64,000 nucleotides of DNA from an uncultured Methanosarcinales archaeon (GCA_964362365.1 CAYIEF010000001.1:4207-68206), one strand, 5' to 3'; numbered from the stretch's first letter, positions 7,750 to 59,701 are shown. The notes: a model not told the origin generated them from the sequence alone. Numbers and translations: made by a program.

Positions 7750-7761
7750 GATGAGCTCCTC

Positions 7762-15634: not shown

Positions 15635-15718
15635 AATTTAGGGCTAGAAGCTATTTTACTATATAAAGCTGTTTTACTCACTTATTAGTAATAAGAAAAG
15701 AAAGATTTATAAAATACT

Positions 15719-16495: not shown

Positions 16496-18624
16496 GTGGG
16501 GTTTTCATAAATCTCTTCATATAGGTCCCGTTCTCCTGTCGCGGTGACTATTACTTCAGGCTCTTTTATCCCATTCGTCTGCACCCAGCTGCCGTCAGCT
16601 TGCTTAACATACCACGCCCGTTCGCCCTTGGAGAATTTTTTGCTGCCAATAGCTTCCCGCTTCCGCTCTTCCGGGTTTAGAGCAAAGATGTTGATCCCTT
16701 CGTAGAGAGGAGCTTTTCCATCCCACCCCTGGATGTTTTGCAAGTTTCCGTAGTGTGTACGCAGCTGCTGAAATCCATTATAATCTTTATCCGTAGCTGT
16801 GTTGCACGCGCTAAAGGAGAGATGTTCAACATTTCCCGGAGGTAAAGCATCAAAGGGAGAACCGCCCTCGACGGTAGCAAAGTATAACTTATCCATGGGA
16901 TTATGATCTCTAAACGCTGCTGGTGCGTCTCTCCAGACATTATCATCACCCTCTACGTGGTGTCCGGTTACTACTAATCGAGAACTTTTTGTTGCTGGCG
17001 GAACATCCCTGCTGTTAAGGATATAACATCCTTCCTGTTGACAGTATCCGACCATGCTTTTTGGCGTATGGGTATTGTCACCAGCCGCAATGATGGTTGT
17101 GGAAATTTTCTTAGAGGGATCTTTTGGCAGAATTATGTGCCCGAAGCTTTGGGCGAATATTTCTTCACAATCCTTGCCAAAGGTGCAAGTTGCAAAATGA
17201 TCCCGCGGTTTTTTGAAATAGGATGGATCTTTCTGAAATTTATTTGAAGACCAGTGATGAAGAAGCTTATCGCAGGTTTCACCTTGGCAAGCTGGATCTT
17301 TGTTATATAGAACGTCAAATCTTCCCGCTTTCACATTTTCCATGGCCCCCTTAAATTGCGGCGGCGTGGCAGCCGAGGACTTGACTTCTGTTACTATTCT
17401 TCCGTTATCTAGGGAAGCAAAAGTTATCTCTCCCCCTTGTTGATTGAGAACCTCTACCCGGTCAAAATACACTGGCGTCTTTACCGATACGGAATCACCT
17501 TCTCGTATGTTCTGAAAAGCCAACCTCCCCCGGTAAGGAGAATTTAGCGCGTCTCCTGGTCTGTTGGTAATACAACCAAAGCCGGCATTCTTCTTACAGT
17601 ACGCTCCCTCCTCACCGCGGTTAAATGCTTCTGTATAATATATACGGCTATTGGTCTTAATATCTATGATGGTGTTGTCTTCTTCAATAACTGTGGTTTT
17701 ATCAAGAAGAATGAATTTATACGGCCATTCTTTTTCTTCCTGAAATATTGTTCCTCTGATTTCCATCGGCGGGAAGCCTTCACTTTTTTGCAGGACACCG
17801 GCTTTATCGATAAACTCTGCCGAGCGGAAAAAAGTACCGGTTACCTTTGTTCCCGGCACCTCAGGCAATTGGCCGATAGCGCCTTGTTCCAATACAAAAT
17901 CGCCCTCATAGGCAACGAAATTGTTCTTGGCGTAAGGGATGCGAACAATACTTTCATCGGCTTTAAATCGAAGGTTTTTCGCTTCCTGGCCTAGCGTGAC
18001 TGCTCCTCCTTTGGTGTGGTAGAGCTCCTTTCCAAACTCGTCTGTAGCCACAAAAAATTCTTCCGTTCTTTCTATAAACGCTTCACGGAAATGTAAAGAA
18101 CCGTCCGGCTGTATGGTCGCATCGGGAACGTCTTTGACGTTGAAGGCAGTTCCTTTTGTTCCTCCGGTAATTATTTTGGTTCCGTCATATCCCTTAATTT
18201 CCACCCCTTGATCATCCATAAAGATTTTGTATTTTTTTTCCAGCCAGGCTGCTTTTGCTTGCGGGTTAGTGTTAAGAATAATGGCCTTTCCTACTGCAGC
18301 ACCATCAAATTTATTCTGCACGTTTTCTTGGTCAAATAAGTTTACATTGATGTTGAGAATTCCCGCGGCTCGCAAGGGATCTTTGGCGAAGGCTGCGTCA
18401 AGAACATTTTGTTGAGTGAGTACATTCGGATTATTTTCAATGGCTTCCCAAGCTTTTGCAGGATTATTTTCAAAAGCCGCAGAGGGATTATTCTCAAAGT
18501 TAGCATTAAATTGCTGTTCATCATTCCAATCAATTTCATGTTCCAGGGCCAATGAACTAGCAATGAGTAGCGCACTTACCATCAGTGCGGCAATTATTGT
18601 ATCTCTAATTCGAAGCGCTGCCAT
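16492..18624 (-). CDS. large secreted hypothetical protein (710 aa)
   Basis: N-terminal signal peptide. Possible Cys/His pair GYCQQEGCY...TGHHVEG (putative peptidase-like, unverified). 4-nt overlap with the transpeptidase gene end. Confidence 0.55.
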   Translation of the reverse strand: MAALRIRDTIIAALMVSALLIASSLALEHEIDWNDEQQFNANFENNPSAAFENNPAKAWEAIENNPNVLTQQNVLDAAFAKDPLRAAGILNINVNLFDQENVQNKFDGAAVGKAIILNTNPQAKAAWLEKKYKIFMDDQGVEIKGYDGTKIITGGTKGTAFNVKDVPDATIQPDGSLHFREAFIERTEEFFVATDEFGKELYHTKGGAVTLGQEAKNLRFKADESIVRIPYAKNNFVAYEGDFVLEQGAIGQLPEVPGTKVTGTFFRSAEFIDKAGVLQKSEGFPPMEIRGTIFQEEKEWPYKFILLDKTTVIEEDNTIIDIKTNSRIYYTEAFNRGEEGAYCKKNAGFGCITNRPGDALNSPYRGRLAFQNIREGDSVSVKTPVYFDRVEVLNQQGGEITFASLDNGRIVTEVKSSAATPPQFKGAMENVKAGRFDVLYNKDPACQGETCDKLLHHWSSNKFQKDPSYFKKPRDHFATCTFGKDCEEIFAQSFGHIILPKDPSKKISTTIIAAGDNTHTPKSMVGYCQQEGCYILNSRDVPPATKSSRLVVTGHHVEGDDNVWRDAPAAFRDHNPMDKLYFATVEGGSPFDALPPGNVEHLSFSACNTATDKDYNGFQQLRTHYGNLQNIQGWDGKAPLYEGINIFALNPEERKREAIGSKKFSKGERAWYVKQADGSWVQTNGIKEPEVIVTATGERDLYEEIYENPT

Positions 18625-31465: not shown

Positions 31466-31723
31466 ATGTTAGAAAAAGCTAGAACAGAAATTGATGAAAT
31501 TGATGCTAAGATATTAGAGTTACTTGCCGAACGATTAAAGATTTGTACGCAATTAGGCAAGTACAAAAAACAACATGCCTTACCAATTCAAAACAAAGAG
31601 CGAGAAAAAGAAGTTATCAGAGAACGAACGCAGAAATTTAAGGAGCTTGGTTACGCTGATGAAAAATTTGTGTCTGAACTTTTTGAAATGATAATGAAAA
31701 AATCGCGGGAAGTGCAGAAATGA
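31466..31723 (+). CDS. aroQ: chorismate mutase (AroQ class)
   Basis: 85-aa all-helical protein with LEKARTEIDEIDAKILELLAERLKI, typical of AroQ. Stop overlaps the next gene (ATGA). Confidence 0.8.
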   Translation: MLEKARTEIDEIDAKILELLAERLKICTQLGKYKKQHALPIQNKEREKEVIRERTQKFKELGYADEKFVSELFEMIMKKSREVQK

Positions 31724-32550
31724 GCTACGAACCAACCGACCAGCCAAAAACAATTTCCATTATTGGCGGTAGAGGAAAAATGGGGTCTTTATTTGCTAGA
31801 AGTTTCCGGGAACAAGGATACAGAGTTTTGGTTTCCGATGAAAACAATTCTAATAATATCCCACTGGCGCAGCAGGGAGAGGTAGTGATTGTTTCGGTGC
31901 CAATAGAAAGAACAGTTGAAGTAGTCAAGGAAATAGGCCCCCAGGTAAGAACAGATTCTCTGCTTACTGATTTTACTTCTGTGAAGGCAAAACCAGTAGC
32001 AGCAATGTTAACTTATTCTCGGGCCGAGGTTATCGGCGGTCATCCGCTATTTGGTCCGAGCATAGAAAAATTTCACAACCAAAATATGATCCTTTGTCCG
32101 GCACGAGGTAAAGATTCTCTCTCCTGGTATAGTACGGCATTGGAAAAGCTGGGATTGAAAGTTACATTCATGGACCCCAAAGAACATGACCAAACCATGG
32201 CTATGGTGCAGTGTTTAACTCACTTCTCCAATATTGTTTTTGCTTCTGCTATTTCCGCAATGGATTACCAGTATGATCAGCAAGATGCCACTACTCCAGC
32301 CTACCTCCTTCGCCTTTATGCTGCAGCGCGAATGCTCACGCAAGATCCTTCTCTATATGCAGGAATTCTAATTGAAAATCCTTTTGCACGTGAAGCAATA
32401 AATGCCTACAGCAATGCGGTTAAAGAAATAAGCACTTTAGTGCATGAATCAAAAAAAGAGGGATTAGAAAGTTTGCTTAATGCTCTTCAAGAACGGTTTA
32501 GAGATCATCCCGTCCTGGAGAAAAAAAAGGCGGAGATTATTGATGAGTAA
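31720..32550 (+). CDS. tyrA: prephenate dehydrogenase
   Basis: Rossmann GxGxxG (IIGGRGKMGS) plus PDH core. Located between chorismate mutase and prephenate dehydratase. Confidence 0.85.
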   Translation: MSYEPTDQPKTISIIGGRGKMGSLFARSFREQGYRVLVSDENNSNNIPLAQQGEVVIVSVPIERTVEVVKEIGPQVRTDSLLTDFTSVKAKPVAAMLTYSRAEVIGGHPLFGPSIEKFHNQNMILCPARGKDSLSWYSTALEKLGLKVTFMDPKEHDQTMAMVQCLTHFSNIVFASAISAMDYQYDQQDATTPAYLLRLYAAARMLTQDPSLYAGILIENPFAREAINAYSNAVKEISTLVHESKKEGLESLLNALQERFRDHPVLEKKKAEIIDE

Positions 32551-33346
32551 AATTGCTGTTCTCGGCCCAGAATATAGTTATTCTCATCTAGTGGGCTTGA
32601 AAATATTTTCTGAACAAGAGTTACTTCTTTGCAACAGGATCGAAGATGTGTTTAAGGCTGTTGCTGAGAAGAAAACGGAAAAGGGAATAATTCCCATCGA
32701 AAACATGCTGCAAGGGAGCGTTAGAGAAAGCATTCTTGGCCTGTTGAAATATAAAGTAAAAATCAATGAGGCTTATACGGTTCCGATACGGCACTGCCTA
32801 GCGGGGCAAAAGCAAAATTACAGTAAAATAGTTTCCCATCAGCAAGCATTAGGGCAATGTTCAGGATTCTTGTCAGGAAAAGAGATCATTGAAGCATCGA
32901 GCACTTCCAAAGCGATGGAAACTGCTGCCCAAAATCAAGCATTTGCAGCTATCGGTTCTAAGGAAGCAGCAGAGCATTATGGATTACGCCTTCTCCAAGA
33001 AAACATTGAAGACAATCATGATAATGTGACTAGATTTTTAGTTATTTCTTTGGAAGAGACAAAAATTGCTGAAAAAAACAGCTCAATGACGTCAAGTTTA
33101 TTGCTTACACCTAAAGATGACCGCCCTGGACTGTTATTTTTGCTGCTGGCGCCATTTGCGGCGCAGAACATTAACTTAGTAAAGATTGAGTCACTGCCTT
33201 CCGGAAGAAAGATGGGAGAATATGTTTTTTATATTGAGATAGAAGGGGATGTTCATGAAGAGCGAGTAAAAGCTGCCCTGGACTTTTTAAGGAATAGCAT
33301 TGAAGTGTATTCGTTAGGTTCGTACGAAGTACGGGATTTTGAATAA
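32543..33346 (+). CDS. pheA: prephenate dehydratase with C-terminal ACT domain
   Basis: IAVLGPEYSYSH N-terminus, TRFLVIS, ACT domain. Start at the internal Met (track ORF starts 32480). Confidence 0.85.
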   Translation: MSKIAVLGPEYSYSHLVGLKIFSEQELLLCNRIEDVFKAVAEKKTEKGIIPIENMLQGSVRESILGLLKYKVKINEAYTVPIRHCLAGQKQNYSKIVSHQQALGQCSGFLSGKEIIEASSTSKAMETAAQNQAFAAIGSKEAAEHYGLRLLQENIEDNHDNVTRFLVISLEETKIAEKNSSMTSSLLLTPKDDRPGLLFLLLAPFAAQNINLVKIESLPSGRKMGEYVFYIEIEGDVHEERVKAALDFLRNSIEVYSLGSYEVRDFE

Positions 33347-34399: not shown

Positions 34400-35292
34400 T
34401 ACGCTAGATATTTTTGCCTGTTTGTTTTTATCCTCCATTTGTTTCTTTCTCTTCCTCTCCGGTTCAGCAAGATAATTTTCACTTGTTACTATTGGGCGAC
34501 CCAACTCTTTTTCAGTTTCCTTTCTAGCGTTACCTGCCACCCTTCCGCCTCTTTTGGCAGCATCTTCAACTTGTGGATATCCCTGCGCATCTTCTTTTCT
34601 GGTGATTTAGGTAGAAACCCTTTCACCTAGCATAGTAAAAATAAGCTCTAAATCGTTCATATGATCTCGTAAGTTCTCTTGTTTCAGTCCTTTGAATTGC
34701 TTATACTCACTTGGAGTCATACCAAACGTTGCTCTGGAAATTTCCGCAGTCAAAATAGCGTATTCCTTTTCAGTCTTTACCCCTCTTTTGTCCCATTCGT
34801 CAGTCAGTTCGTCTCTTATGGCAATACCCCTAACTCTCTTCTCAATCCAATCATCAGAATAACCTTTGGCTTTGTAGATTTCTTTCATACGCTTTTGGCA
34901 AGTTCAGGGTTTTCTATTTCCTGCACTCTATCATAGCCTACTTGAGCCAGCCATAATTTAAGCGGTTCTGCTTTTTTGGACGGTATTGATTGAATTATCC
35001 TGAAAAGAGACTTAGTATTGGCACAATCGGTCTCATAGAGTTTACCATCTGCTGCAGGTAATTTCAGTCGGTGACAATTTGTCACCACCTCGCTTCCTTC
35101 TTCCCTAAGCCTTTGGCTGAGCTTGTTCCAATATTTTCTAGCTATCTGAAAATCTTCCTGCCCGGTTAAAAATGCAATTATATCAATAACAGAATAATAC
35201 CATTCATTGTTATACCATAGTCTTCTAAACTGTTTTCCTTGGAATACAATAAGAGAAGTATGCCCCATTATTTCATCTGCCATTTTCAGCAC
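34400..35292 (-). pseudogene. DinD/Bro-N family gene broken into three pieces (Bro-N part 35292-34885; -1 shift at ATGA 34885-88; in-frame TAA at 34607-09; C-terminal continuation to 34400)
   Basis: The N-terminal piece is a Bro-N domain. The middle piece continues DinD-like. The reading frame after the TAA stays open for 68 codons (ITRKEDAQGYPQVEDAAKRGGRVAGNARKETEKELGRPIVTSENYL...), hand-translated. Confidence 0.5.
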
Positions 35293-35725
35293 CTATGCTT
35301 GAGCTTCTAATAACTTTTAAGAAATAAACACCATATTTATCAAAATTTCTTTCTCCAATACCATCAATTTCAATCATTTCTTCTTTCGTCATCGGCTTAG
35401 ATTTAGCTAATCTCTTTAAGACAGAATCATGAGCTACTACATACGGAGGAAGATTCTCAGCTCGCGCAAGATCCATCCTCATACTACGCAGTTTTTCAAA
35501 CAACCTATTTTCTTCTAAATTTAATTCAATAAGTGGGGATGAAACCACGGGCTTAAAATCTCCTTTATTCATCTTATCCATCTTGGCATGAAGAAATGTA
35601 ACTGTTGAATCTATAATTTTATCTAATTCTTCAACACTATCAGCACCAACTTTTACAGAGCCAACATACCAAGACCCTTTTGCAGTCTGCTTAAATTCTA
35701 CGTCAAAATTTTTTCCCTCTTCCAT
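35273..35725 (-). CDS. HRDC-domain protein
   Basis: C-terminal half (LFEKLRSMRMDLARAENLPPYVVAHDSVLKRLAKSKPMTKEEMIEIDGIG) matches the HRDC fold of RecQ/RNase D. Confidence 0.6.
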   Translation of the reverse strand: MEEGKNFDVEFKQTAKGSWYVGSVKVGADSVEELDKIIDSTVTFLHAKMDKMNKGDFKPVVSSPLIELNLEENRLFEKLRSMRMDLARAENLPPYVVAHDSVLKRLAKSKPMTKEEMIEIDGIGERNFDKYGVYFLKVIRSSSIGAENGR

Positions 35726-35819
35726 TTTAAGCTAGGAAACCTCAAACTTTATAACTTTTGCCCACCAATCTAAATTTTAGCCTGCTTTGCAGTAATCCTA
35801 TTTTTCAAAGTTTTCAGAA

Positions 35820-36090
35820 ACTACAGCGCAGTGCGATTTTCGGCGGTAAAAATACTCTTCGTCGCTTCGCTCCTTGTCCTCCCACTCTGCTCAGAAATTT
35901 TATTAATGATAATTCTAGTCCTCGCTCGTAGGTCGGAGAAACTAACAGGAATTATTTCAGCTCAGAAATGAAATCGTTGCATGAAAAACAAGGTTTTTCA
36001 GCACTGAAAATAAATCGTGGTTTGTTTTCATGTGTTTCATTTCTTGAGTAAGCGAAGCGAACGATGGGATAGGCAACTTCAGGATTTCCG
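35820..36090 (+). repeat. copy B of dispersed repeat family, with two tandem hairpin units (35954-35992, 35996-36032) and the AGCGAAGCGAACG core (36051-63), in the divergent promoter region upstream of the Ehr-like operon
   Basis: Homology to 21342-21470 and, in inverted orientation, to 53640-53830 (about 80% over the 45-nt core). Shared TCCTCGCT segment. Confidence 0.5.
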
Positions 36091-36159
36091 TGTTTATTAT
36101 CTACGTTTTACAGTAAACTAACTGTAAACTATAATTTAAAAAATATGTTTTAGCAGATA

Positions 36160-36214
36160 CTTATCCTTTTAAAGAGTAAATGAAAGTGGGTGTTGCTTCC
36201 AAGAGGAATAACCC
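36160..36214 (+). promoter_or_regulatory. putative promoter and ribosome-binding region of the Ehr-like operon
   Basis: TATA-like CCTTTTAAAGAG about 45 nt upstream of the ATG. GAGGA Shine-Dalgarno-like 8 nt before the start codon. Confidence 0.3.
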
Positions 36215-38155
36215 ATGTTGATCCAACATTTATACCTTAGCGCCTTGATGTTACTGCTTGCCGGGTCAATTCTTCCTTTTGTTTATGGCAAAAGAGTAGT
36301 GCGGTGGTTATCCCAGAGTCTTATGCTGCTGGGGAATACCATATTAGTTTTCTCTTCTTTGACCATTCTCCTCACCACGCAAACGCTGTCCTGGAATGTA
36401 CACAGATGGATACCGTTTTTCTCCTTCACCATAGATAAACTTGCGGCCTTTTTCATCCTTCTTACGGCAGTAGTGTCCTTATGCATAGGTATCTATTCTT
36501 TTTCCTACACCGAATACCTTCATGGCCGAAAAGAAGTCTTTATTTTTCTCACGGGTTTGTTTACTCTCTCACTGGTGCTGGTAGTCTCTTCTTCTTCATT
36601 GCTGGCCTTTCTTTTTTTCTGGGAAATGATGTCCCTCACTTCATTTTTTCTGGTGATGACCGAATACGAAAAAAAAGAAACGCAAAAAGCGGGGATTTTT
36701 TATTTCGTTATGACCCAGTTTGGCACGCTATTTATAATGTTAGCCTTCTTCTTGATCTATCAGCATACCGGTTCCCTGAATATCGAGCAATTGCATAAAC
36801 TTCCTTCTGGTCTTGCCAATATTATATTTGTTTCATTATTCATCGGCTTTGGCACAAAGGCGGGGGTTATTCCTTTTCACAAATGGCTGCCTTATGCACA
36901 TCCCGCCAGCCCTTCACCAACGTCGGCGCTGATGTCCGGCGTTATGATAAAAATTGCCATCTATGGACTGGTGAGGTTCATGCTTCTCTTTCCCGAGCAA
37001 AAATTATGGTGGGGAGTGTTTATTTTAATTTTGGGAACAATCTCGGCTTTCCTGGGAGTTATCTATGCGTTGAAAGAACATGACTTAAAACAGTTGCTGG
37101 CATACCACAGCATAGAAAATATCGGCATAATCCTTATGGCCATTGGTTTGCATGTAATCTTCCAGTTTTTTGCTCTGGAGCAATGGGCGGTGGTTGCTTT
37201 TGGCGCGGCGCTTTTTCATACTCTGAATCATGCCCTGTTTAAGAGCCTGCTATTCCTAAGCGCCGGATCAGTAGTTCAGGCCACGCATACCAGGAACATC
37301 GAGGAAATGGGAGGACTAATAAAAAAGATGCCCTACACGGCATTCTTGTTTTTGATCGGCGCCGTATCTATTTCAGCACTGCCCCCATTCAATGGTTTTG
37401 CCAGCGAACTAATGGTTTTTGAAGTATTATTTCGGTCCAATTTAATTCCTCTTCCCTCCATCAAAGTATTGTTATTTTTATCTTTATCTTTGTTTGCCAT
37501 GACCAGTGCGCTGGCGGCAGCATGCTTCGTAAAAGCGTTTGGTGCGGTTTTCCTTGCTCTTCCAAGATCAAAAGAAGCAGCGGAAGCAAAAGAGGCGCCA
37601 ACCCCCATGCTTTTGGGCCCAGCAGTTTTAGCTCTTTTATGTATGGGTTTAGGAGTTTTCTCTTTCCAGATATTTTCCGTTATCGGAAAAAACATTGGCT
37701 ATGAGTTTCCTCTTCCAAATTTATGGTACGTTTTCCTGGCATTGGCAATTTTCACCGTTCTGGTCATCATCATGGTGCGTTTATTCGCTTCCAGGAAAAG
37801 CAGGGTAAGTGAAACCTGGGGTTGTGGAATTCTTTCGCAGAACTCCAGAATGGAATATACTGCTTCCGGGTTCTCTGAGCCGATAGTCACTATTTTTAGT
37901 TCCATTTATCGCACTAAAAAAAGAGCTCAAAAATCTTTCTATGACCAAAACCAAGTGGTGTTTAAGGAAGGACATGCTGAGATTACACTGGTAAAATTTT
38001 TTGAAGAATACTTATACCTGCCCCTAGTCAGAATTGTACAACGCATCTCCGCATATCTCTATACGCTGCAGAATAAAGTAGAATTAGACTCGTACATCCT
38101 CTATAGTTTCATTACCATCATTATCTTGATGCTGATTGCCGGCGGAGTAATATGA
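36215..38155 (+). CDS. HyfB/NuoL/MrpA-like proton-antiporter-type membrane subunit
   Basis: 646 aa, at least 16 TM helices, WLPYAHPASPSPTSALMSGVMIKIAIYGL antiporter-module signature. Confidence 0.85.
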   Translation: MLIQHLYLSALMLLLAGSILPFVYGKRVVRWLSQSLMLLGNTILVFSSLTILLTTQTLSWNVHRWIPFFSFTIDKLAAFFILLTAVVSLCIGIYSFSYTEYLHGRKEVFIFLTGLFTLSLVLVVSSSSLLAFLFFWEMMSLTSFFLVMTEYEKKETQKAGIFYFVMTQFGTLFIMLAFFLIYQHTGSLNIEQLHKLPSGLANIIFVSLFIGFGTKAGVIPFHKWLPYAHPASPSPTSALMSGVMIKIAIYGLVRFMLLFPEQKLWWGVFILILGTISAFLGVIYALKEHDLKQLLAYHSIENIGIILMAIGLHVIFQFFALEQWAVVAFGAALFHTLNHALFKSLLFLSAGSVVQATHTRNIEEMGGLIKKMPYTAFLFLIGAVSISALPPFNGFASELMVFEVLFRSNLIPLPSIKVLLFLSLSLFAMTSALAAACFVKAFGAVFLALPRSKEAAEAKEAPTPMLLGPAVLALLCMGLGVFSFQIFSVIGKNIGYEFPLPNLWYVFLALAIFTVLVIIMVRLFASRKSRVSETWGCGILSQNSRMEYTASGFSEPIVTIFSSIYRTKKRAQKSFYDQNQVVFKEGHAEITLVKFFEEYLYLPLVRIVQRISAYLYTLQNKVELDSYILYSFITIIILMLIAGGVI

Positions 38156-38159
38156 AATT

Positions 38160-39101
38160 ATGAAATCCATTTTACTTTATGCCGTCGTAAATGTATTGGT
38201 AATCTTGTTATTGGCACCTTTATATTTATCGTTAATTAAAAAAGTTAAAGCTAAAACTCAGAGAAGAAAAGGTCCACTTTTACTGCAATCTTACTACAAT
38301 CTATTTAAATTATTCAAGAAGGAAGCAGTATATTCTCAGAATTCTTCGTGGATTATGCGCGTTTCACCCTATCTCAATATCGTTTGCCTGCTGGTAGCAG
38401 CATTGTTTGTCCCGATATTATTCATCCCCGCAACAGGAAGCTGGCTGGGCAATATTATTTTGTTTTTATATCTTCTGGCTCTGGCCAAGTTTTTTATGGC
38501 CTTAGGGGGCCTGGATGCAGGAAGCACCTTCGGGGGGATGGGGAGCTCCCGAGAAATGACCCTCTCGTCTCTGGTTGAACCCGTCGCCATACTTGTTTTT
38601 GCCGCGCTCGCTTTTGTATTCCAGAGCACTAACTTTTTTGATATTTTTCGCCAAACTATTCAATCCACGCCGGCAGAGGTAAACCCTTCTCTGGTATTAT
38701 TAGGAATTTCATTGTTCATCGTTTTGATTACCGAAACTGCGCGAGTTCCTGTTGATAATCCAGAAACACACTTGGAATTGACCATGGTGCACGAAGCAAT
38801 GATCCTGGAACAGTCAGGCAGAAATTTAGCCCTGCTCGAAATATCCGCTTCAATAAAACAGCTTTTGCTCATGGGAATTTTAATTAACGTATTCCTTCCC
38901 TGGGGTTTAAGCCCAAAAGCAGCCGTTTGGGGAATGGCGATTTCCTTGGGATTATTCTTAGTAAAAAGCACTTTCCTGGCAGTATTTATGGGGCTGTTTG
39001 AGTCCTATTTTGCAAAACTGCGCTTGTTCCGTCTGCCGATCTTATATTCTCTGGCATTTTTCCTGACTTTAATTACCATTTTTCTGGAGGTCTTGCTATG
39101 A
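38160..39101 (+). CDS. HyfC/HycD/NuoH-like membrane subunit
   Basis: 313 aa. ETARVPVDNPETHLELTMVHEAMILEQSGRNLALLE matches the NuoH/HycD conserved loop. Confidence 0.85.
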   Translation: MKSILLYAVVNVLVILLLAPLYLSLIKKVKAKTQRRKGPLLLQSYYNLFKLFKKEAVYSQNSSWIMRVSPYLNIVCLLVAALFVPILFIPATGSWLGNIILFLYLLALAKFFMALGGLDAGSTFGGMGSSREMTLSSLVEPVAILVFAALAFVFQSTNFFDIFRQTIQSTPAEVNPSLVLLGISLFIVLITETARVPVDNPETHLELTMVHEAMILEQSGRNLALLEISASIKQLLLMGILINVFLPWGLSPKAAVWGMAISLGLFLVKSTFLAVFMGLFESYFAKLRLFRLPILYSLAFFLTLITIFLEVLL

Positions 39102-39796
39102 ATGCGGTTATGAATGTAGTTCTTTTTGAAGGCTTAGTAAAATTGTTTTTAGTCGTGGTGGTAGTTTCAACCGCGTTTATCCTTACTGGAAAGGATCTTC
39201 TGGCCTTATTCCGCACCTATGCGCTGCAGTCCGTGTTTATTGCTGCAGTTGCCTTTATCTTGTTCCTGCAGGAAAGAAATATGATTTTGTTGTACACAGC
39301 CATGCTGACTCTGGTAAGCAAGGGAATAATAATCCCAAAGCTGTTGCAAAAAGTGCAAAAAAGCATGAATGTTCGCCGGGATATAGAATTCCATTATCTG
39401 CAGCCAAGCGGATCAATCTTCTTGAGCATAATCTTGCTTTTAGTAGTACACCTAATTTTTTTAAAGATTATGCGTGATGTTACCACCAGCAGCTTGTTTC
39501 ATACAGGATTGGTAGTGGGTGTTTCGTTAACCTTCATAGGAATGCTCATTATTTTCAGCCGCAGAAAGATCATCAGTAAAATTGTCGGATACCTAACCAT
39601 GGAGAATGGGGCAGTATTGTTCAGCTTGTTTATGGGCGAATTGCCGCTTCTTATTGAAGTGCTGGTGCTGATGGACTTAATGGTGCTGGTGCTCGTTGCT
39701 GCTATGCTAGCCTTCGGCATGGACTCTTCTATTGAAGATTTCCACTACAAATTAAATCCCTTTCGGAGATGGTTTAAAGGAGGGAAGGAAGTATGA
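39098..39796 (+). CDS. HyfE-like small membrane subunit
   Basis: 232 aa, 6-7 TM helices, TMENG motif. ATGA coupling on both sides. Confidence 0.7.
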   Translation: MNAVMNVVLFEGLVKLFLVVVVVSTAFILTGKDLLALFRTYALQSVFIAAVAFILFLQERNMILLYTAMLTLVSKGIIIPKLLQKVQKSMNVRRDIEFHYLQPSGSIFLSIILLLVVHLIFLKIMRDVTTSSLFHTGLVVGVSLTFIGMLIIFSRRKIISKIVGYLTMENGAVLFSLFMGELPLLIEVLVLMDLMVLVLVAAMLAFGMDSSIEDFHYKLNPFRRWFKGGKEV

Positions 39797-41241
39797 TTGA
39801 AAACATTATCATCATCGCAGTCATCATCGCGGCTATTGCATTGATAGCAGTTATTGCTTCGCGCTCCATCCGCATTATGAACGCAAGTACAATTATTCAC
39901 TCTTTTGCCACTATGGTATTGGCAGGATATGCCCTCAGCACAGTAAAGTTGCCGCTTTTTTTCCTGAAAAACCGCTATTTTTTTCTGGATGCTCTTGGCA
40001 TTTACGAAATTTTCATTACTGGCTGCATATTTTTCCTCGCGGCCATCTATGCAAAAGGATACATGCATAGTTTAATAAAAGCTGGAGAACTTGATCCCAA
40101 AAATGCAAAATTATTTTATGTGGTCTTCAATTTGCTGCTGCTGTCTGTAGTTTTAGCATTTAGTGCAAATAACTTAGCTTTGTTGTGGATTTTTGTTGAG
40201 CTCACCACGGTTCTTTCTGCCATCCTCATTGTGGTGTTAAATGCCAAAGAAAATATCACCGCAGCAATCAAATATGTATTCATCACTTCAACTGCAATGA
40301 TCTTTTCGTTTATGGGCTTGATACTTTTATTCTTCTCCAGCAGGCAAGGGCTGGAAGAGGCAACCTTAAACTGGGATATGTTATTGCAAGGGGCGCAACA
40401 ACTGCCGCCGCAATTATTGCTTTTCTCCTTTGTCCTTATTTTTGTGGGCTTTGCGGCAAAATCAGGAGTCGCTCCCTTTCATACCTGGCTCCCTGCAGCA
40501 TACTCTAAAGCGCCTTCAGATGTAAGCGTGCTGCTTTCTGGAAGCGTTTCTATGATCGGGGTTTACGCTATCCTTCGCATCTATTCATTAACTGCGCATA
40601 CGGTCGTGCATCCTTTTGCTTCCAAATTCCTGCTGGCATTTGGAGTTCTTAGCATAGGTATAGCTGCTCTAAGCATGTTGGTTCGAACCAATGTAAAAAA
40701 GATAATCGCTTTTTCCAGCATAGAGCATGTGGGAATAATGCTGCTGGGCATGGGAATAGGAAATATTGTCTGGATGGTATACCATCTACTGGCGCATGCC
40801 TTGGCTAAAGCGCTGCTCTTTTTTTCCGCAGGAATCATTCATCGCCAATACCAGAGCAACAAGATTGAAGCAATATACAATTTGTTTGAACTCCAGCCTT
40901 TCGCATCCTGGGGATTGATCATCGGCAGTGCTGCCGTGATAGGAATGCCCCTGCTTCCACTCTTCATCTCAAAATTTTTTATCCTTGCGGATTTGGCGAA
41001 CGTTTCCTTACTGCTGTTATTGGCGGTATTGGTTTTGTTATTGATAGCCTCAGGTTCTTTTGCCTGGTTCATGATACAGATGATGCAAATCAAAGAAAAT
41101 GTTTTACCCAAGTATCGTGCTCCCGCAAGCATGAAAATGGCCTTGTTCATTTTAATCGCGCTTTTATTGGCATTAGGCCTGTATGTTCCTGATAAGCTCT
41201 ATGCAATATTAGAAAAAATAGTTGTCCAACTAGGGTTATGA
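39793..41241 (+). CDS. HyfF/NuoN/NuoM-like antiporter-type membrane subunit
   Basis: 482 aa. WLPAAYSKAPSDVSVLLSGSVSMIGVYAILR antiporter signature. Confidence 0.85.
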   Translation: MIENIIIIAVIIAAIALIAVIASRSIRIMNASTIIHSFATMVLAGYALSTVKLPLFFLKNRYFFLDALGIYEIFITGCIFFLAAIYAKGYMHSLIKAGELDPKNAKLFYVVFNLLLLSVVLAFSANNLALLWIFVELTTVLSAILIVVLNAKENITAAIKYVFITSTAMIFSFMGLILLFFSSRQGLEEATLNWDMLLQGAQQLPPQLLLFSFVLIFVGFAAKSGVAPFHTWLPAAYSKAPSDVSVLLSGSVSMIGVYAILRIYSLTAHTVVHPFASKFLLAFGVLSIGIAALSMLVRTNVKKIIAFSSIEHVGIMLLGMGIGNIVWMVYHLLAHALAKALLFFSAGIIHRQYQSNKIEAIYNLFELQPFASWGLIIGSAAVIGMPLLPLFISKFFILADLANVSLLLLLAVLVLLLIASGSFAWFMIQMMQIKENVLPKYRAPASMKMALFILIALLLALGLYVPDKLYAILEKIVVQLGL

Positions 41242-41263
41242 AGGATCTGAGGGAAGAAAAACT

Positions 41264-42826
41264 ATGAATAGCTTGAAAACAGAATTGAAATACCTTTTCG
41301 GCTCTATGAAGTTCGAAGAAAAGAACGCTGGAGAGATACATATAGAAGCTGGAGAAGATGATTTTCTTCGCATTATTCCTGCGCTCGCTGAGAAAAAATG
41401 CATCCTCATTGATTTATTTGCTGTGGAAAATTTTGACAGCACAAAAAATATATTTTTATTGTACGTCTTTGAAAAGAGAGGCTGCTCTGAGGTGCTCATC
41501 CTTCAACGCAAAGTAAGTATGAAAACTTCTTCTATTGCTACGACCTTCCCTTCAGCATGCTGGTATGAACGAGAAATAACTGACGGATTCGGCATTGAAT
41601 TTACTGGAGCTTTTGATACCCGCCGGTTATTCCTGCATGAGATTTATCCCCAAGATTTTCATCCATTACGTAAATCTTTGGTGAATAAGCCTATGAAGAT
41701 GCAGGAATCAATCCCGCAAACTGAGGAATATAAGTTTAAGGAAATGCGTGGAGAAGGAGTCTATCAGATTCCAGTCGGCCCGGTCCATGCGGGAATTATT
41801 GAGCCGGGACATTTTCGCTTCAGCGTCATTGGAGAAACAATCTTTAATTTGGAAGTGCGGATGTTCTGGAAGCATAGAGGGATAGAAAAATTAGCCGAGA
41901 ATAAAAAGCCGCAAGAAGTTATAGCGTTAGCAGAAGCTATAAGTGGTGATGAAACAATAGCGAACTCCTTAGCATACTGTGTCGCAGTGGAAAAGATTTG
42001 TTCGGTCAAAATACCGCCCCGCGCTTTGTACCTGCGAACACTTTTTGCGGAGATGGAACGGATCTACGCTCTTTTAGGAGACTTGGCGGGAATGATCATT
42101 GATGTAGCCTATCCCGCCGGTGCAAGCCCCCTTTTTATTTTGCGGGAAGAAATGTTGCGCTGGAATGAACGAGTAAGCGGTTCACGATTTTTTAAGAATG
42201 CCCTGCAGATAGGGGGAGTTAAGGCCGATGTTGGCAATGAAACATTAGAAGAACTAATTCAATACTTACGTGCTTTCTCCATACGTTTGAAACAGGCAGC
42301 AGATCAAGCTGTCCGCTTTACTTCTGTATTCGATCGGTTGGAAATGGCGGGAGTTGTAAAAAAAGAATTAGTAGATTCTTTGAATTTAAGCGGACCCTTG
42401 GCGAGAGCTTCTGGAGCTGCTGCTGATGTGAGAATTGATCATCCTTATGGCTTGTATTTTAAAATAGCCCCCCACAACTTTGTTTTGGAACAAGGAGATG
42501 TGTTAGCGAGATTCAGAGTGAAAGTTGCCACCATTATAAACTCGATCAATATAATTCAAAAAATAATCAGGGAGATGCCGCAGGGAGAAATTACTGCTGC
42601 ATATACGCTCAAAAACGGCTTGGCGTTGTCTCTGGTGGAGTCCGCGCGCGGGCAGAATGTTCATTTTGTTTATATACAAAAAGGAGCAATTAGCCGTTAC
42701 AAAGTCAGGACCGCTTCCTTTTGCAACTGGCAGGCAATTGAGCATGCAGTTCTTGGGAATATAATTCCTGACTTTCCGCTCATTAACAAAAGCATGAATT
42801 TATCGTATGCTGGTACGGATATGTAG
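41264..42826 (+). CDS. NuoC-NuoD fusion / HycE-like 'large subunit' homolog lacking all NiFe-ligand cysteines
   Basis: N-terminal NuoC-like domain plus NuoD-like domain (VGPVHAGIIEPGHFRF...HRGIEKL). The RxCGxC position reads AISGDE. The C-terminal DPCxxC position reads DFPLINKSM. Confidence 0.85.
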   Translation: MNSLKTELKYLFGSMKFEEKNAGEIHIEAGEDDFLRIIPALAEKKCILIDLFAVENFDSTKNIFLLYVFEKRGCSEVLILQRKVSMKTSSIATTFPSACWYEREITDGFGIEFTGAFDTRRLFLHEIYPQDFHPLRKSLVNKPMKMQESIPQTEEYKFKEMRGEGVYQIPVGPVHAGIIEPGHFRFSVIGETIFNLEVRMFWKHRGIEKLAENKKPQEVIALAEAISGDETIANSLAYCVAVEKICSVKIPPRALYLRTLFAEMERIYALLGDLAGMIIDVAYPAGASPLFILREEMLRWNERVSGSRFFKNALQIGGVKADVGNETLEELIQYLRAFSIRLKQAADQAVRFTSVFDRLEMAGVVKKELVDSLNLSGPLARASGAAADVRIDHPYGLYFKIAPHNFVLEQGDVLARFRVKVATIINSINIIQKIIREMPQGEITAAYTLKNGLALSLVESARGQNVHFVYIQKGAISRYKVRTASFCNWQAIEHAVLGNIIPDFPLINKSMNLSYAGTDM

Positions 42827-42833
42827 GTGAAAA

Positions 42834-43355
42834 ATGGCAAGTGCAATTGGTAACGTATGGAAGTCAACAGTGACGGAAGAATTCAAATTTCGAGATGAGG
42901 AGTTCGAGCAGCTGGGGATAAAACTCAAAAGAGATATTGATTCCATATTTGGAAGAAGTTTGGCTATTAGAGAAGTAGATACGGGAAGCGATAACTCTCC
43001 GGAGATTGAATTAGTAAATTTGACAACTCCTTACTATGATGTAGAGCGATTTGGGATTACCTTTGTAGCTTCGCCCCGCCATGCGGATGTTTTAATAGTT
43101 ACTGGTCCGGTTACCTGGAATATGGCCACAGCGTTGCGAAAAACCTATGATGCTACGCCATCACAAAAACTGGTTATTGCTTTAGGCGATGATGCTTGTG
43201 ATGGGGGATTATTCAAAGGAAGTTATGCGGTTTTAGGGGGAGTCGATAAAGCCATTCCTGTCGACGTAAAAATTCCTGGAAATCCTCCTGCACCGAAAGA
43301 AATCTTAAAAGGATTATTAGCGCTTATGAAAAAAATAAGGGAAAGAGACTCTTAG
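42834..43355 (+). CDS. NuoB/HycG-like 'small subunit' homolog lacking three of four [4Fe-4S] cysteines
   Basis: SPRHADVLIVTGPVTWNMATALRKTYDATP...VIALGDDACDGG...IPVDVKIPGNPPAP is clearly NuoB-fold. The CCxxE site reads TGSDNSPE and the CPP site reads NPP. One Cys remains. Confidence 0.8.
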   Translation: MASAIGNVWKSTVTEEFKFRDEEFEQLGIKLKRDIDSIFGRSLAIREVDTGSDNSPEIELVNLTTPYYDVERFGITFVASPRHADVLIVTGPVTWNMATALRKTYDATPSQKLVIALGDDACDGGLFKGSYAVLGGVDKAIPVDVKIPGNPPAPKEILKGLLALMKKIRERDS

Positions 43356-43419: not shown

Positions 43420-44157
43420 TCAGCGCTGAAGAGTGCTGAAGAAAACAAGATTATCTGCAATAAGCTGCGTCTGGCGCAAAACCGCCCCCAAGCCCAGCAG
43501 CCTGGCGTAACTATCAAAGATTTGTTCAGGATCATTCTTTAATTCATCAGCAATGTTGGTAAGATGCTTTAAAGATTCCAATGCGTATTTCCTGTAGCGT
43601 TGAATCTGCTCCTTTGTTCCGATCATATAATTTTCGGCTAATTCAGCAACACGATCCCTAAACGACTGATCATCCCGCGGATGTTCGTAGCCGGGATATC
43701 CTACTGCGCCGCCAACGGTTTGGTCCAGCGCAAAATTCCAGCATTTCTCAAAATAGGGCATCTCTGGAACCCAGTTTGCGGCGTCGCCGCCAACTTGGCC
43801 AAGGCCGTAGATGAGCTTTTCTTTTTTTGGTTTTCGATAATGTAATCCTAGTTTATCAATATCAACATCAACATGTACAGCCATATGCTGCCTTTTTCCG
43901 CCCCCAACTCCTGCATACCAAAACTGAACGAGAAAGTGAGTAAACATATAGAGATTGTTTTGGTCGGCGAGATATTTTTGAAGACTTATACCCCCATCAA
44001 CGGTTAGATAATTTCCTGATTGCTTGACAATATGCTTTACCAAATCCCAATTAAACTCTCCAAAGTTCTCAACATTAGTATCTAATTTTTTTCCTGAAGA
44101 AAAGAACATTATTTCTTTATTGAGGATTAAATTTTCCAGGGAAAGAGTTGAAGCCAT
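43420..44157 (-). CDS. hypothetical protein
   Basis: 245-aa ORF convergent on the operon end. No family recognised. Confidence 0.5.
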   Translation of the reverse strand: MASTLSLENLILNKEIMFFSSGKKLDTNVENFGEFNWDLVKHIVKQSGNYLTVDGGISLQKYLADQNNLYMFTHFLVQFWYAGVGGGKRQHMAVHVDVDIDKLGLHYRKPKKEKLIYGLGQVGGDAANWVPEMPYFEKCWNFALDQTVGGAVGYPGYEHPRDDQSFRDRVAELAENYMIGTKEQIQRYRKYALESLKHLTNIADELKNDPEQIFDSYARLLGLGAVLRQTQLIADNLVFFSTLQR

Positions 44158-55564: not shown

Positions 55565-57565
55565 ATGATTGAAGTTAGTTTATTAGCAATTATAATTAGT
55601 ATCGTAGCTTTAGCTTATGCCGGATATCTTTCTTTTAAGGTTATGAAGATTAATCCTGGAAATGAAAAGATGAAAGAGATTTCCAACGCCATTAAGGAAG
55701 GGGCGATGGCTTATATGGCTCGCCAATATAAGACCATTGCCGTATTTGCGATAATTATTTTCATTGTTTTATTGAAGCTATTTGAAACCCCGATAGCTTT
55801 AGGATTCCTATTAGGGGCAGTTCTTTCTGGAATTTCTGGTTATATCGGAATGAGTATCTCAGTCAGAGCTAATTCCCGAACCGCGGAAACTGCTAAAAAA
55901 GGTTTGAAAGAAGCTTTAGACGTTGCTTTTAAGGGGGGTTCAGTTACCGGGATGGCCGTAGTCGGACTTGCTTTACTTGCTGTCAGCACATTTTATTATT
56001 TTTATCCTGCTCCCAGTATGTTGGTCGGGTTAGGGTTTGGCGCTTCATTAATTTCTTTATTTGCCAGAGTAGGGGGAGGGATTTATACTAAAGCAGCAGA
56101 TGTCGGAGCAGATTTAGTTGGGAAAATTGAAGCAGGAATTCCTGAAGATGATCCACGAAATCCGGCAACAATTGCTGACAATGTTGGGGATAATGTTGGA
56201 GATTGCGCAGGCATGGGAGCTGATTTGTATGAAACTTATGTCGTTACTTTATTAGCGGCGATGCTGTTAGGGATCATTCCTAGTGTCTCTGCCGGTTTCA
56301 ATCAAGCGGTAGAATATCCTTTAATGTTGGGTTGTGTTGCGATTGTTGCTTCTATTTTAGGAACATTCTTTGTTAAATTAGGAAAATCAGAAAATATCAT
56401 GATGGCTTTGTACAAAGGATTAATTGGGGCAGGCATTTTTTCCGCGGCTGGATTTTACGCCGTAACTTATTACACTAAAAATCCAATTAATCTGTTTTTA
56501 GCCGCAATCGTTGGTTTAGTTATTACTTTATTAATCAATATCATTACTGAATATTATACTAGCACAAAATATCGGCCGGTTAAAAAAATTGCTGAAGCTT
56601 CTAATACTGGAGCTGGAACAAATTTAATTACTGGTTTAGCTATGGGTTTGGAATCAACTTTGCTCCCTGTTTTAGTCATCTGTGGCGGAATTATTGCTGC
56701 TTATATGTTAGCTGGAATTTACGGTGTTGCGATCGCTGCTGTTGCAATGTTATCCTTAACTGGAGTCGTTATTGCTTTAGACAGTTACGGGCCAATCACC
56801 GATAATGCCGGCGGTATCGCTGAAATGGCCGGCTTAGATAAAAAAGTCAGAAACGTTACCGATGCTTTAGATGCAGTTGGAAACACAACTAAAGCCGTTA
56901 CTAAAGGTTACGCCATCGGCTCTGCAGCTTTAGCTGCATTAGCTTTATTTGCTGCTTTTTCCCAGGAGATTACCGCAATAACCGGAACACCAGTTAGCTT
57001 TTTATTAACCAATCCTGCAGTCTTGGTGGGGTTATTTATTGGAGCTTTGTTGCCGTTTATCTTTTCATCTTTATGCATGACTGCAGTTGGAAGTTCAGCC
57101 CATGAAATAGTAATTGAAGTACGCAGACAATTTAAAGAGATCAAAGGGTTAATGGAAGGGAAGGCTAAACCAGAATACGGCAAATGCGTAGATATCGTAA
57201 CTAAAGCTGCGTTGAGAAATATGGTTCTTCCAGCCGTGTTGGCCATTGCTGCACCGCTTTTAGTTGGATTATTATTGGGAATAAAAGCATTAGGCGGATT
57301 GTTGATTGGAGTTATCTTAAGCGGCTTAATGATGGCTTTATTTATGTCCAATACCGGAGCAGCATGGGATAATGCTAAGAAATTGATTGAAAAAGGCTCA
57401 GGAAAAGGTACTGAAGCTCACAAAGCAGCGGTTGTTGGTGACACAGTTGGAGATCCGTTCAAAGACACTGCCGGGCCGGCTTTAAACGCTTTAATCAAAG
57501 TCATGAATACTTTTGCCATCGTCTTTGCACCAGTTTTAATAGCTTATGGATTAAATTTGTTTTAA
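55565..57565 (+). CDS. hppA: membrane-bound proton-translocating pyrophosphatase, K+-independent type
   Basis: 666 aa, 15-16 TM helices. DVGADLVGK and DNVGDNVGD acidic motifs. GNTTKAV has Lys at the A/K-determining position, indicating K+-independence (from memory of the rule). Confidence 0.95.
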
Positions 57566-58411: not shown

Positions 58412-59701
58412 ATGAAAAGAGGCCGAAACAAAAAAGAGGAGTCAAAACTAAAAAGATTCTTTAAGAAATTAGGGCCTGGTTTTATCACCGGCGCATCGGA
58501 TGATGATCCTTCAGGGATAGGAACGTATTCCCAGACTGGAGCCCAATTTGGCTACAACCAACTTTGGACGGCTTTATTTTCCTTTCCATTCATGGCGGCA
58601 ATCCAAGAGATGTGCGGGCGGATTGGAATAGTAACCGGAAAAGGCCTGGCCGGAGTGATGAAAAAGCATTATTCAAAAACAGTCTTATATTTTTGCGTGC
58701 TGATTTTGCTGGTCGCCAACACCATCAACATCGGAGCAGACTTAGGAGCGATGGCTTATTCTGGGCAATTGATCTTTGGCATACCATTCATCTATTGGCT
58801 TTTAGGGATAACCGCCATAACCCTTCTTCTGGAAATCTTTGTCTCCTACCGGCTATATGCCAAAGTGCTCAAATATTTCACTTTTTCCCTGTTATCATAC
58901 CTGATTGTTGCCTTTCTGGTAAAACAAGATTGGCCTGCTATCTTAATTTCAACCTTCATCCCCAGCTTTTCTTTTACCAAAGAGTATCTGTTTAATATCG
59001 TGGCCATCCTGGGAACAACCATATCGCCTTATTTGTTTTTTTGGCAGGCCAGCGAAGAGGTAGAGGAAGAAGTTGAAGCAAAAGAATTACGGGAGATGGG
59101 AAATGGAATTCCAAAATTCCATGCTTCAAGAATAAAAGACCTGAGAATTGACACTATCGTTGGAATGTCTTTCTCAAATTTAATCATGTTTTTCATCATC
59201 GTCACCACCGCTTCAACCTTAGGCGCGCATGGGATCACCGATATTCAAACTGTAGATCAGGCTGCGCAGGCTTTACGGCCTCTAGCAGGAGATTGGGCAT
59301 ATTTATTGTTTGCTTTAGGAATCATAGGCACTGGGCTGTTGGCGGTGCCAGTTTTAGCCGGTTCAGCATCATATGCTCTAGCAGAAACATTCAACATGAA
59401 AGAAGGGCTTTACCGTAAATTTAAGCAAGCTCATGGATTTTACGGAGTCATAACACTGGCGACCATTGTCGGATTGATCATTAACTTCACCAGCATTCCA
59501 CCGTTTAAGGTCCTCTATTATACTGCTATCCTGAACGGCCTGGCCGCTCCGCCGCTCCTGGTGATGATAATGCTGATCTCAAATAATAAAAAAGTTTTAG
59601 GTAACTATACTAACCATAAACTCTCAAATTACCTTGGCTGGACCATCACCGCAATGATGGCTTTATGTGCAATCGCTTTAATAGCCAGTTTATTTTTCTA
59701 A
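58412..59701 (+). CDS. mntH: NRAMP-family divalent metal (Mn2+/Fe2+) transporter
   Basis: GPGFITGASDDDPSGIGTYSQTGAQFGY is the Nramp signature. 11-12 TM helices. Confidence 0.9.
   Translation: MKRGRNKKEESKLKRFFKKLGPGFITGASDDDPSGIGTYSQTGAQFGYNQLWTALFSFPFMAAIQEMCGRIGIVTGKGLAGVMKKHYSKTVLYFCVLILLVANTINIGADLGAMAYSGQLIFGIPFIYWLLGITAITLLLEIFVSYRLYAKVLKYFTFSLLSYLIVAFLVKQDWPAILISTFIPSFSFTKEYLFNIVAILGTTISPYLFFWQASEEVEEEVEAKELREMGNGIPKFHASRIKDLRIDTIVGMSFSNLIMFFIIVTTASTLGAHGITDIQTVDQAAQALRPLAGDWAYLLFALGIIGTGLLAVPVLAGSASYALAETFNMKEGLYRKFKQAHGFYGVITLATIVGLIINFTSIPPFKVLYYTAILNGLAAPPLLVMIMLISNNKKVLGNYTNHKLSNYLGWTITAMMALCAIALIASLFF

Follow-up and report, generated by a model that had tools for sequence, protein, structure and literature searches.

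A six-gene Ehr-type operon of an archaeon whose large and small subunits lack every metal-ligand cysteine

Introduction

Ehr (Ech or energy-converting hydrogenase related) systems are encoded by operons of the group 4 hydrogenase type in which the large subunit has no NiFe-ligating cysteines (PMC6349859, PMC10284858, PMC4378227). Coppi 2005, as cited in PMC6147122, described them first in Geobacter; they were generalised by Marreiros et al. 2013 (as cited in PMC6349859), and have been reported in Margulisbacteria, bacteria of the candidate phyla radiation (CPR), Nitrospira, ammonia-oxidising archaea, Sulfobacillus and others; the function is always given as unknown (in PMC6349859, PMC10284858 and PMC4378227 among others). 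Anderson et al. 2009 recorded the lack of NiFe cysteines in Mhun_1817-1822 of Methanospirillum hungatei and in homologs from Methanosarcina acetivorans and Methanosarcina mazei (PMC2686161), and in 2016 the M. hungatei cluster received the name ehrABCDLS from Gunsalus et al., who placed it among clusters that “likely reduce Fd” (ferredoxin) (PMC4704411). A complex of formate dehydrogenase and Ehr (FDH-Ehr) has been proposed in Margulisbacteria (PMC6349859), and the Geobacter Ehr proteins, which are of the type that retains an electron wire, were detected at higher levels on formate (PMC7894505). Here we describe an Ehr operon at positions 36215-43355 of a stretch of 64,000 nucleotides (GCA_964362365.1 CAYIEF010000001.1:4207-68206, deposited under an uncultured Methanosarcinales archaeon), hereafter “the window”. 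All eight metal-ligand cysteines are absent from its large subunit, EhrCD, and its small subunit, EhrB.

The Ehr of Geobacter (GSU0739-45) and of M. hungatei (Mhun_1817-1822) have the same subunit set and order as the window, and their NiFe cysteines are gone too. Most sampled Ehr, however, keep the four cysteines of the N2 cluster in the small subunit, many of them with a fused 2x[4Fe-4S] domain, and the window’s clade has neither. The gene order of the window is that of hyfB-C-E-F-G-I in formate hydrogenlyase 2 (FHL-2, Hyf), and HycC, HycD, HycE and HycG of the Escherichia coli FHL-1 (Hyc, PDB 7z0s) are the best solved homologs of four of its subunits. Compared with FHL-1 and FHL-2, the window operon and its flanks lack the NiFe site, the proximal cluster, HycF/HyfH, HycB/HyfA, HyfD and FdhF; the lysine of transmembrane helix 7 (TM7) is kept in EhrL but lost in HycC.

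The Thermococcales complexes Mbh, MBS and MBX are also relatives, and the large subunits of MBS and MBX likewise have no NiFe site. MbhJ, MbhH and MbhM (PDB 6cfw, 6u8y) are close homologs of window subunits, but Ehr has neither the three [4Fe-4S] clusters that these complexes keep nor their Mrp-type Na+ module (MbhA-G). With the Mrp antiporters the window shares two MrpA/MrpD-type subunits and a NuoK/MrpC-like element; it does not have the MrpA-G set, since MrpB, E, F and G are missing, and it has a NuoH-like subunit and a NuoB-C-D cap that are absent from Mrp. Modules homologous to NuoB, C, D, H, K, L and N of complex I are all present, with the same charged axis in the membrane arm, but the N2 cluster, NuoI and NuoEFG are not, and the operon yielded no gene of the NuoA or NuoJ type. 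By the HycE alignment and the NuoD motif, Gly228 of EhrCD stands where NuoD has its quinone-binding Tyr.

Loss of the cofactor ligands

Six + strand open reading frames (ORFs) of 646, 313, 232, 482, 520 and 173 amino acids (aa) make up the operon. The second symbols below follow the M. hungatei ehrABCDLS nomenclature, so that EhrL and EhrB each label two different subunits; we use the first symbols.

36215 to 38155, + strand: EhrL/EhrA, HyfB/HycC/NuoL-type antiporter-like subunit (646 aa; Pfam Proton_antipo_M, 6e-66; NCBIfam NF006418 “hydrogenase membrane subunit”, 853 bits, cut-off 794; closest solved homolog HycC, 7z0s_C, 8e-76)
38160 to 39101, + strand: EhrH/EhrB, HyfC/HycD/NuoH-type subunit (313 aa; Pfam NADHdh, 1e-36; closest solved homolog HycD, 7z0s_D, 7e-42)
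39098 to 39796, + strand: EhrE/EhrC, HyfE-like subunit with a NuoK-like C-terminal half (232 aa; a weak match: NCBIfam HyfE NF008556, 1.6e-13, under the cut-off; Pfam Oxidored_q2, 0.005)
39793 to 41241, + strand: EhrN/EhrD, HyfF/NuoN/MbhH-type antiporter-like subunit (482 aa; Pfam Proton_antipo_M, 4e-50; NCBIfam NF006427 “hydrogenase membrane subunit”, 552 bits, cut-off 511; closest solved homologs MbhH, 6cfw_H and 6u8y_H)
41264 to 42826, + strand: EhrCD/EhrL, NuoC-NuoD/HycE-type large subunit without NiFe ligands (520 aa; Pfam Complex1_30kDa and Complex1_49kDa; HycE, 7z0s_E, 1e-60)
42834 to 43355, + strand: EhrB/EhrS, NuoB/HycG/MbhJ-type small subunit without N2-cluster ligands (173 aa; Pfam Oxidored_q6, 3e-25; MbhJ, 6cfw_J, 9e-31)
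35726 to 36214, + strand: presumed promoter/5' region of the operon (489-bp intergenic region; AT-rich, TATA-like stretches near 36125-36145 and 36164-36176)

The profile of the HyfE-like family found no solved relative for EhrE. A preliminary description of the window had counted two to three antiporter-like subunits; there are only two. Its assignment of the operon to Ehr agrees with the published category, with the loss of the NiFe cysteines and with the six-gene type named ehrABCDLS. Indeed, the locus has the NuoL-, NuoH-, HyfE- and NuoN-like membrane subunits together with a large and a small subunit, and the NiFe cysteines are absent.

HMMER alignments to solved structures (HycE, MbhJ and bovine PSST) gave the ligand positions with high confidence. 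At the first NiFe site, “RVCGICGFAHS” of HycE aligns with “AISGDETIANS” of EhrCD, where the cysteines are replaced by S227 and E230 and the histidine by N234; the earlier claim that this site has no Cys was thus correct. At the second, “DPCYSCTD” of HycE aligns with “NLSYAGTD”, the cysteines giving way to S514 and G517. The C-terminal loss had also been recognised, but it had been placed at DFPLINKSM, and the true positions lie about five residues later. EhrCD therefore displays neither of the large-subunit motifs of group 4 [NiFe]-hydrogenases, RxCGxCxxxH and DPCxxCxxH/R; its replacement residues recur in 120 relatives and in 79 of 80 reference-genome loci. In EhrB, “GSCNGCD” of MbhJ corresponds to “GSDNSPE” (Cys to D53 and Cys to P56), the third N2 ligand (“GACPTGG” or “GSCANGG” in the relatives) falls on D120 in “GDDACDGG”, and the fourth (“PGCPP”) on N150 in “PGNPP”. 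The four-Cys proximal [4Fe-4S] site of group 4 enzymes is therefore missing. The preliminary description was right about this loss, but it had one of the four cysteines retained; none of the four canonical positions is Cys, and C122, the only cysteine of EhrB, lies out of register, two residues past the third ligand position. Among the ORFs scanned in the 64-kb window, a scan that missed some ORFs, no Hyp maturation or endopeptidase genes turned up.

The predicted folds of the two subunits are intact. AlphaFold (AF2) modelling from family alignments was confident and gave EhrCD a predicted local distance difference test (pLDDT) score of 83.5 and a predicted template modelling (pTM) score of 0.88, with HycE as the top Foldseek match (template modelling score 0.87); the EhrB model had a pLDDT of 74.7 and a pTM of 0.71, and its top match by template modelling score was MbhJ. 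The most conserved segments (EhrCD 160-195 and 513-520; EhrB 122-138) are the parts of these monomer models with the lowest confidence, which fits elements that become ordered only at subunit interfaces.

An Ehr clade without redox sites

Relatives turned up in at least 599 species in a scan of species-representative genomes, and the analysis covered 80 loci. The gene order L-H-E-N-CD-B is kept in nearly all of them, and the large subunit is without NiFe cysteines in 79 of the 80; the exception (L061, Chloroflexota) is a true hydrogenase. The small subunit, however, divides the loci into two tiers. In distant loci (36-45% identity), from Nitrospirota, Acidobacteria, Verrucomicrobia, Thaumarchaeota, Bacillota and Omnitrophota, it retains all four N2 cysteines. 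Many of these four-Cys subunits measure 260-350 aa, with a 2x[4Fe-4S] ferredoxin domain at the N-terminus, and three loci (L024, L048 and L058) have a small ferredoxin gene between CD and B instead of the fusion. Such tier-1 Ehr are thus predicted to keep an electron wire. In the 20 closest loci (50-63% identity), by contrast, the small subunit has about 170 aa and D-x-D-N at the ligand positions, the pattern that the window also displays. These loci belong to Methanosarcina, Methanoregula, Methanospirillum lacunae (L022), Altiarchaeota, Bathyarchaeia, Dehalogenimonas/Dehalococcoidales and Moduliflexus.

The D-x-D-N clade, with the window in it, was monophyletic in 100 of 100 neighbour-joining bootstraps, and its sister group consists of Bacillota Ehr in which a 2x[4Fe-4S] domain is fused to a four-Cys EhrB. 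A wired ancestor therefore gave rise to the clade, which has lost the entire wire. What is new here, then, is that one well-defined Ehr clade has lost both the N2 cysteines and the ferredoxin domain, so that every redox site is gone. In the Ehr literature surveyed, the founding papers (Coppi 2005 and Marreiros 2013) aside, loss of the small-subunit cluster finds no mention. The tree places the window with operons from Methanosarcina, Methanoregula and M. lacunae. Its data set had no sequences for ehrABCDLS of M. hungatei or for the Geobacter Ehr, and the probable link to these named members comes from genus (M. lacunae is a congener of M. hungatei) and from the published description.

An exhaustive small-subunit search of 1.84 billion cluster representatives returned 6755 hits, among which the D-x-D-N clade, a single representative at 50% clustering, ranked first. 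Loss of the N2 cluster looks recurrent in NuoB-like proteins: of the 131 complete sequences among the top 150 NuoB-like representatives (P0144-P0293), approximately 37 are without at least one ligand cysteine and approximately 26 without two or more, in patterns such as NEGD, SEGD, DDDS, DVDD and others.

Three loci were unusual in other ways. In L070 (Daviesbacteria, CPR; 4179-11422) the order is B-L-H-N-CD, with no recognisable HyfE-like gene, and the N2 positions of the small subunit read T-C-D-D, which looks like a separate event of partial cluster loss. An Altiarchaeales metagenome-assembled genome (MAG; L010) carries two cofactor-free Ehr operons (4868-12034 and 15802-20828) about 4 kb apart, and a Nitrospirota MAG (L060) has two adjacent wired operons (4769-12109 and 12184-19838) with differing large-subunit motifs.

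Conservation of the replacement residues and the membrane arm

Identities of 56-66% for EhrCD and 68-92% for EhrB hold across phyla and both domains; the EhrB range spans DPANN (Diapherotrites, Parvarchaeota, Aenigmarchaeota, Nanoarchaeota, Nanohaloarchaeota) archaea, Thermoplasmata, Altiarchaeota and Moduliflexus, and 70 of the 173 EhrB columns are at least 95% conserved. The residues that stand in for the lost ligands share in this conservation. In the 120 nearest EhrB clusters, which have zero to two cysteines in total, D53 is found in 119, D120 in 116 and N150 in 113 (the other seven have Asp). K146 is present in 114 of them, at a position where wired Ehr have Tyr. The co-occurrence suggests that D53, D120, N150 and the newly gained K146 form a charge-balanced salt-bridge network filling the former cluster space. 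A cation-binding site composed of D53, D120 and N150 was also considered; given the conserved K146 alongside them, we judged it less likely than the network.

All 120 of the nearest large-subunit relatives end in “...PDFPLINKSMNLSYAGTDL” or a near-identical variant. In the EhrCD pocket and its beta1-beta2 loop, H175, H183, E208, K209, E212, G228, D503-S510, S514, Y515, G517 and D519 do not vary in either tier, and D229 and E230 are invariant within the window’s clade.

For the membrane arm, residues were counted in 19 clade members and 47 other Ehr. E137, K215, H222, H335, H339, K343 and E398 of EhrL are unchanged in all 19 and all 47 (K246 in 18/19 of the clade), and E136, K223 and K339 of EhrN are invariant. 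In EhrH, the same is true of R195, P197, D199, E206 and E212 in the TM5-6 loop and of the channel glutamates E192, E140 and E281, with E217 present in 18/19. K75, R155, E169, E187 and D193 of EhrE are invariant in the clade. The ion-translocation machinery, as read from these residues, is evidently still in use. Three switches are specific to the unwired clade: Glu to Lys in TM12 of EhrN, “EY” to “EQ” in EhrH (Tyr to Gln at 218) and Gln161 to Lys in EhrE. By this measure, the replacement residues, the charged axis of the membrane and the coupling loops are all under strong purifying selection. At residue 254 of EhrN (the TM8 position, Lys in NuoM), the clade has Asn in 18/19 and the window has Met.

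Operon organization and the search for partners

Coordinates, junctions and Pfam/NCBIfam matches all agree with the six translationally coupled genes in hyf order of the preliminary description: the frames overlap by ATGA at 39098 and 39793, and the remaining gaps, within the 4-22 nt first given, are 4, 22 and 7 nt. EhrL and EhrN pass the curated NCBIfam equivalogs NF006418 and NF006427, and the operon type is therefore already represented in reference genomes; scores for the HyfB and HyfF equivalogs, unlike these, fall under the cut-off. An “AGAGGA” lies 8 nt ahead of the first ATG. Rfam gave no relevant match for the window and no significant one for the 489-bp upstream region, and a sigma-70 promoter scan, a model not applicable to an archaeon, stayed at chance level.

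The genes on either side are on the opposite strand and unrelated (upstream an HRDC-domain gene, a Bro-N gene and a DinD-like fragment; downstream a 245-aa unknown and an Asn/Asp-tRNA synthetase). The 245-aa ORF (43420-44157, minus strand), which converges on the operon, was rejected as a member of the system: neither Pfam nor NCBIfam matches it, and the 80 loci contain no homolog. Across the 20 clade loci with flanks of up to 10 kb on each side, and the window from 26 to 54 kb, conservation is confined to the six subunits, and a CxxCxxCxxxCP motif is absent from every ORF in those flanks and that part of the window. As the preliminary description had reported, a NuoI/HyfH-type subunit, HyfA and NuoEFG are absent from the operon and its flanks. 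Both findings that would have overturned that description were looked for; the ligands are truly absent, and the transcription unit holds no NuoI or ferredoxin gene. Three relatives on long contigs, two of them close archaeal ones (L085 and L086, a Woesearchaeota MAG) and one from Margulisbacteria (L087), likewise show no redox gene among the annotated neighbours; the operon is an isolated six-gene unit there. Clusters of flanking ORFs were rejected as partners, as they reflect synteny at the lineage level only (histidine kinases, an ABC ATPase, small genes specific to Methanoregula) and none is clade-wide.

A few neighbours deserve mention in their own right. A P-type cation ATPase lies within 10 kb of the operon in L085 (19040-21569) and L086 (1-1168), on opposite sides, which may be coincidence; none turned up among the window ORFs scanned. 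Directly downstream of the cofactor-free operon of L087 are genes for NikR, CbiM and a PDGLE-domain protein (12348-14539). Nickel/cobalt genes are odd beside a complex free of a nickel site, and they may serve other hydrogenases of that organism. Upstream of the window operon, at 34607-35725 on the minus strand, are the genes for the HRDC-domain protein (35273-35725) and the Bro-N protein (34885-35292) and a 93-aa ORF (34607-34888) that weakly matches the C-terminal part of DinD. Between the latter two there is a 4-nt overlap, and together they may represent one DinD/Bro-like gene of the mobile-element type that has been split.

Possible functions

How might such a complex work? The reading that we favour, plausible if somewhat short of probable, is that of a redox-independent ion-translocating module in which the cofactor-free cap is a lid or gate on the NuoH-like channel. 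The operon would encode a complete, functional complex of the FHL-2/complex I type that works without redox chemistry, and its likeliest role would be secondary ion translocation (cation/proton antiport or other gradient-coupled ion movement). Ions would pass through the NuoH-like E-channel of EhrH, the NuoK-like glutamates of EhrE and the antiporter-like EhrN and EhrL; the EhrB-EhrCD cap, no longer delivering electrons, would sit as a cytoplasmic lid or gate at the entrance of the EhrH channel. An ion-translocating role had been put forward in the preliminary description and agrees with the conservation data, but the movement of ions, their identity and a gradient (not a chemical reaction) as the driver are what we infer. 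In favour of this reading we count the lost cofactor sites, the missing partner, the derived position of the clade, the conserved charges of the membrane arm, the intact folds and the host context, namely a DPANN archaeon, a group in which a survey found no Mrp families (PMC9258230), with a pyrophosphatase and a Na+/H+ exchanger encoded in the window.

Some observations weigh against this reading. Subunits of the MrpB/E/F/G type, which are tied to the Na+ path in Mrp and Mbh, do not occur in the complex, and one cannot therefore count on antiport of the true Mrp kind. With a CPA-type Na+/H+ exchanger already present in the host, the need for a further antiporter is not obvious. The rise of the wired Geobacter Ehr on formate hints at a metabolic link for the wider family (PMC7894505). 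Finally, the invariance of the EhrCD pocket in wired and unwired Ehr could mean that the two share a ligand-binding or catalytic role, not that the cap is a passive lid. The main rival, which we regard as rather unlikely, starts from this pocket: the former NiFe site would bind or convert a small non-redox substrate (for instance by hydration, decarboxylation or hydrolysis) in a manner coupled to ion translocation, and the complex would then be a pump driven by chemistry or an enzyme driven by the gradient. It would account for pocket and loop residues that are invariant in both tiers, for a C-terminal motif identical in 120 relatives, and for the retention of the entire NuoH/NuoB/NuoD coupling interface, a feature that Mrp antiporters do without. 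However, complex I also has a highly conserved NuoD C-terminus, and no catalytic metal there, and conservation alone is therefore no proof of catalysis. Moreover, the conserved segments coincide with the low-confidence parts of the monomer models, as expected of interface elements, and no candidate substrate gene is linked to the operon in the clade loci or the three long-contig relatives.

That the complex is still a redox enzyme, fed by a partner encoded elsewhere (formate dehydrogenase, ferredoxin) or holding a cofactor on non-cysteine ligands, is improbable. The published FDH-Ehr proposal (PMC6349859), the grouping with clusters that “likely reduce Fd” (PMC4704411) and the formate response in Geobacter (PMC7894505) speak for it, but EhrB has zero to two cysteines at the NuoB position and, unlike the sister clade, comes with no NuoI/HycF-like domain or gene; the cytoplasmic surface is therefore not linked to the membrane interface by any cluster chain. 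The D/D/N/K replacement, in addition, would seem to resemble charge-balanced packing and not a cluster site, and no partner is conserved nearby. For a clade that has lost every redox site, ferredoxin reduction or FDH-Ehr electron transfer is thus very unlikely. The earlier statement that the module cannot perform hydrogenase or conventional electron-transfer chemistry holds in that the ligands are absent, but it is stronger than the literature, in which reduction of ferredoxin is held to be likely (PMC4704411). We give equally little credence to a sensor, regulated leak or assembly scaffold that reports or dissipates an ion gradient, or organises membrane proteins, with no net vectorial transport. 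There is no obvious energy input, and the operon occurs in low-energy anaerobes and in a reduced DPANN genome, as such a role might lead one to expect; the antiporter-type Glu/Lys/His set, however, is nearly invariant in two subunits, which exceeds the needs of a scaffold. Although the loss of all cofactor sites might bring to mind a decaying, non-functional relic of a hydrogenase operon, the six intact, translationally coupled frames, the identities across phyla and both domains, the conserved replacement residues and the retention of the operon in a DPANN archaeon effectively refute this explanation, whose probability is minimal.

Returning to the lid-or-gate reading, we propose only tentatively a wider form of it: the clade may represent a natural complex-I-type machine with a Q-module free of redox cofactors, its NuoB-C-D cap and coupling loops repurposed as a ligand- or gradient-driven gate for two antiporter modules, with recurrent loss of N2. 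If true, such a Q-module would make it possible to study, in a system free of redox chemistry, how complex I couples what happens at the NuoH/B/D interface to ion pumping. The clade is in any case a natural test of whether the membrane machinery of complex I and hydrogenases can run without redox input. Ehr has been known since 2005, and this clade is found in cultured methanogens, organohalide respirers and DPANN archaea; homologous operons exist in M. acetivorans and M. mazei (PMC2686161), where genetics is available. The labels “formate hydrogenlyase subunit”, “MbhJ” and “hydrogenase membrane subunit” will mislead reconstructions of DPANN and other uncultured anaerobes into H2 metabolism; a literature search found no relevant DPANN paper that reads this operon as a hydrogenase.

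Host and wider window

Proteins identical to those of the window occur on contigs from Hainich groundwater well H51 (0.1 um filter fraction). Proteins named Candidatus Woesearchaeota, Nanoarchaeia or Nanoarchaeota share a cluster, at 90% identity or more, with the window’s pyrophosphatase, and the window further encodes RtcB and a NurA-domain protein. The host is therefore a DPANN archaeon, and DPANN are known to have small genomes. The genome is missing from the GTDB species representatives, where the best match is 63%. In DPANN genomes, no Mrp antiporter families were found by a published survey (PMC9258230).

Several other ion transporters are encoded in the window: CorA (23901-24950), a Na+/H+ exchanger (26244-27446), a membrane pyrophosphatase (55565-57565) and Nramp (58412-59701). 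The exchanger and the pyrophosphatase had been noted before, the latter as an H+-pyrophosphatase; we label it H+/Na+, and its cluster mates carry a sodium-translocating name. Three large minus-strand ORFs had no Pfam match at 1e-5 (5592-6842, 416 aa; 16492-18624, 710 aa; 18594-19913, 439 aa). At 31466-33346, genes for chorismate mutase, prephenate dehydrogenase and prephenate dehydratase-ACT stand in a row (from Pfam matches on the identical contig L001), an aromatic amino-acid branch that is unexpected for a DPANN genome of reduced biosynthetic capacity.

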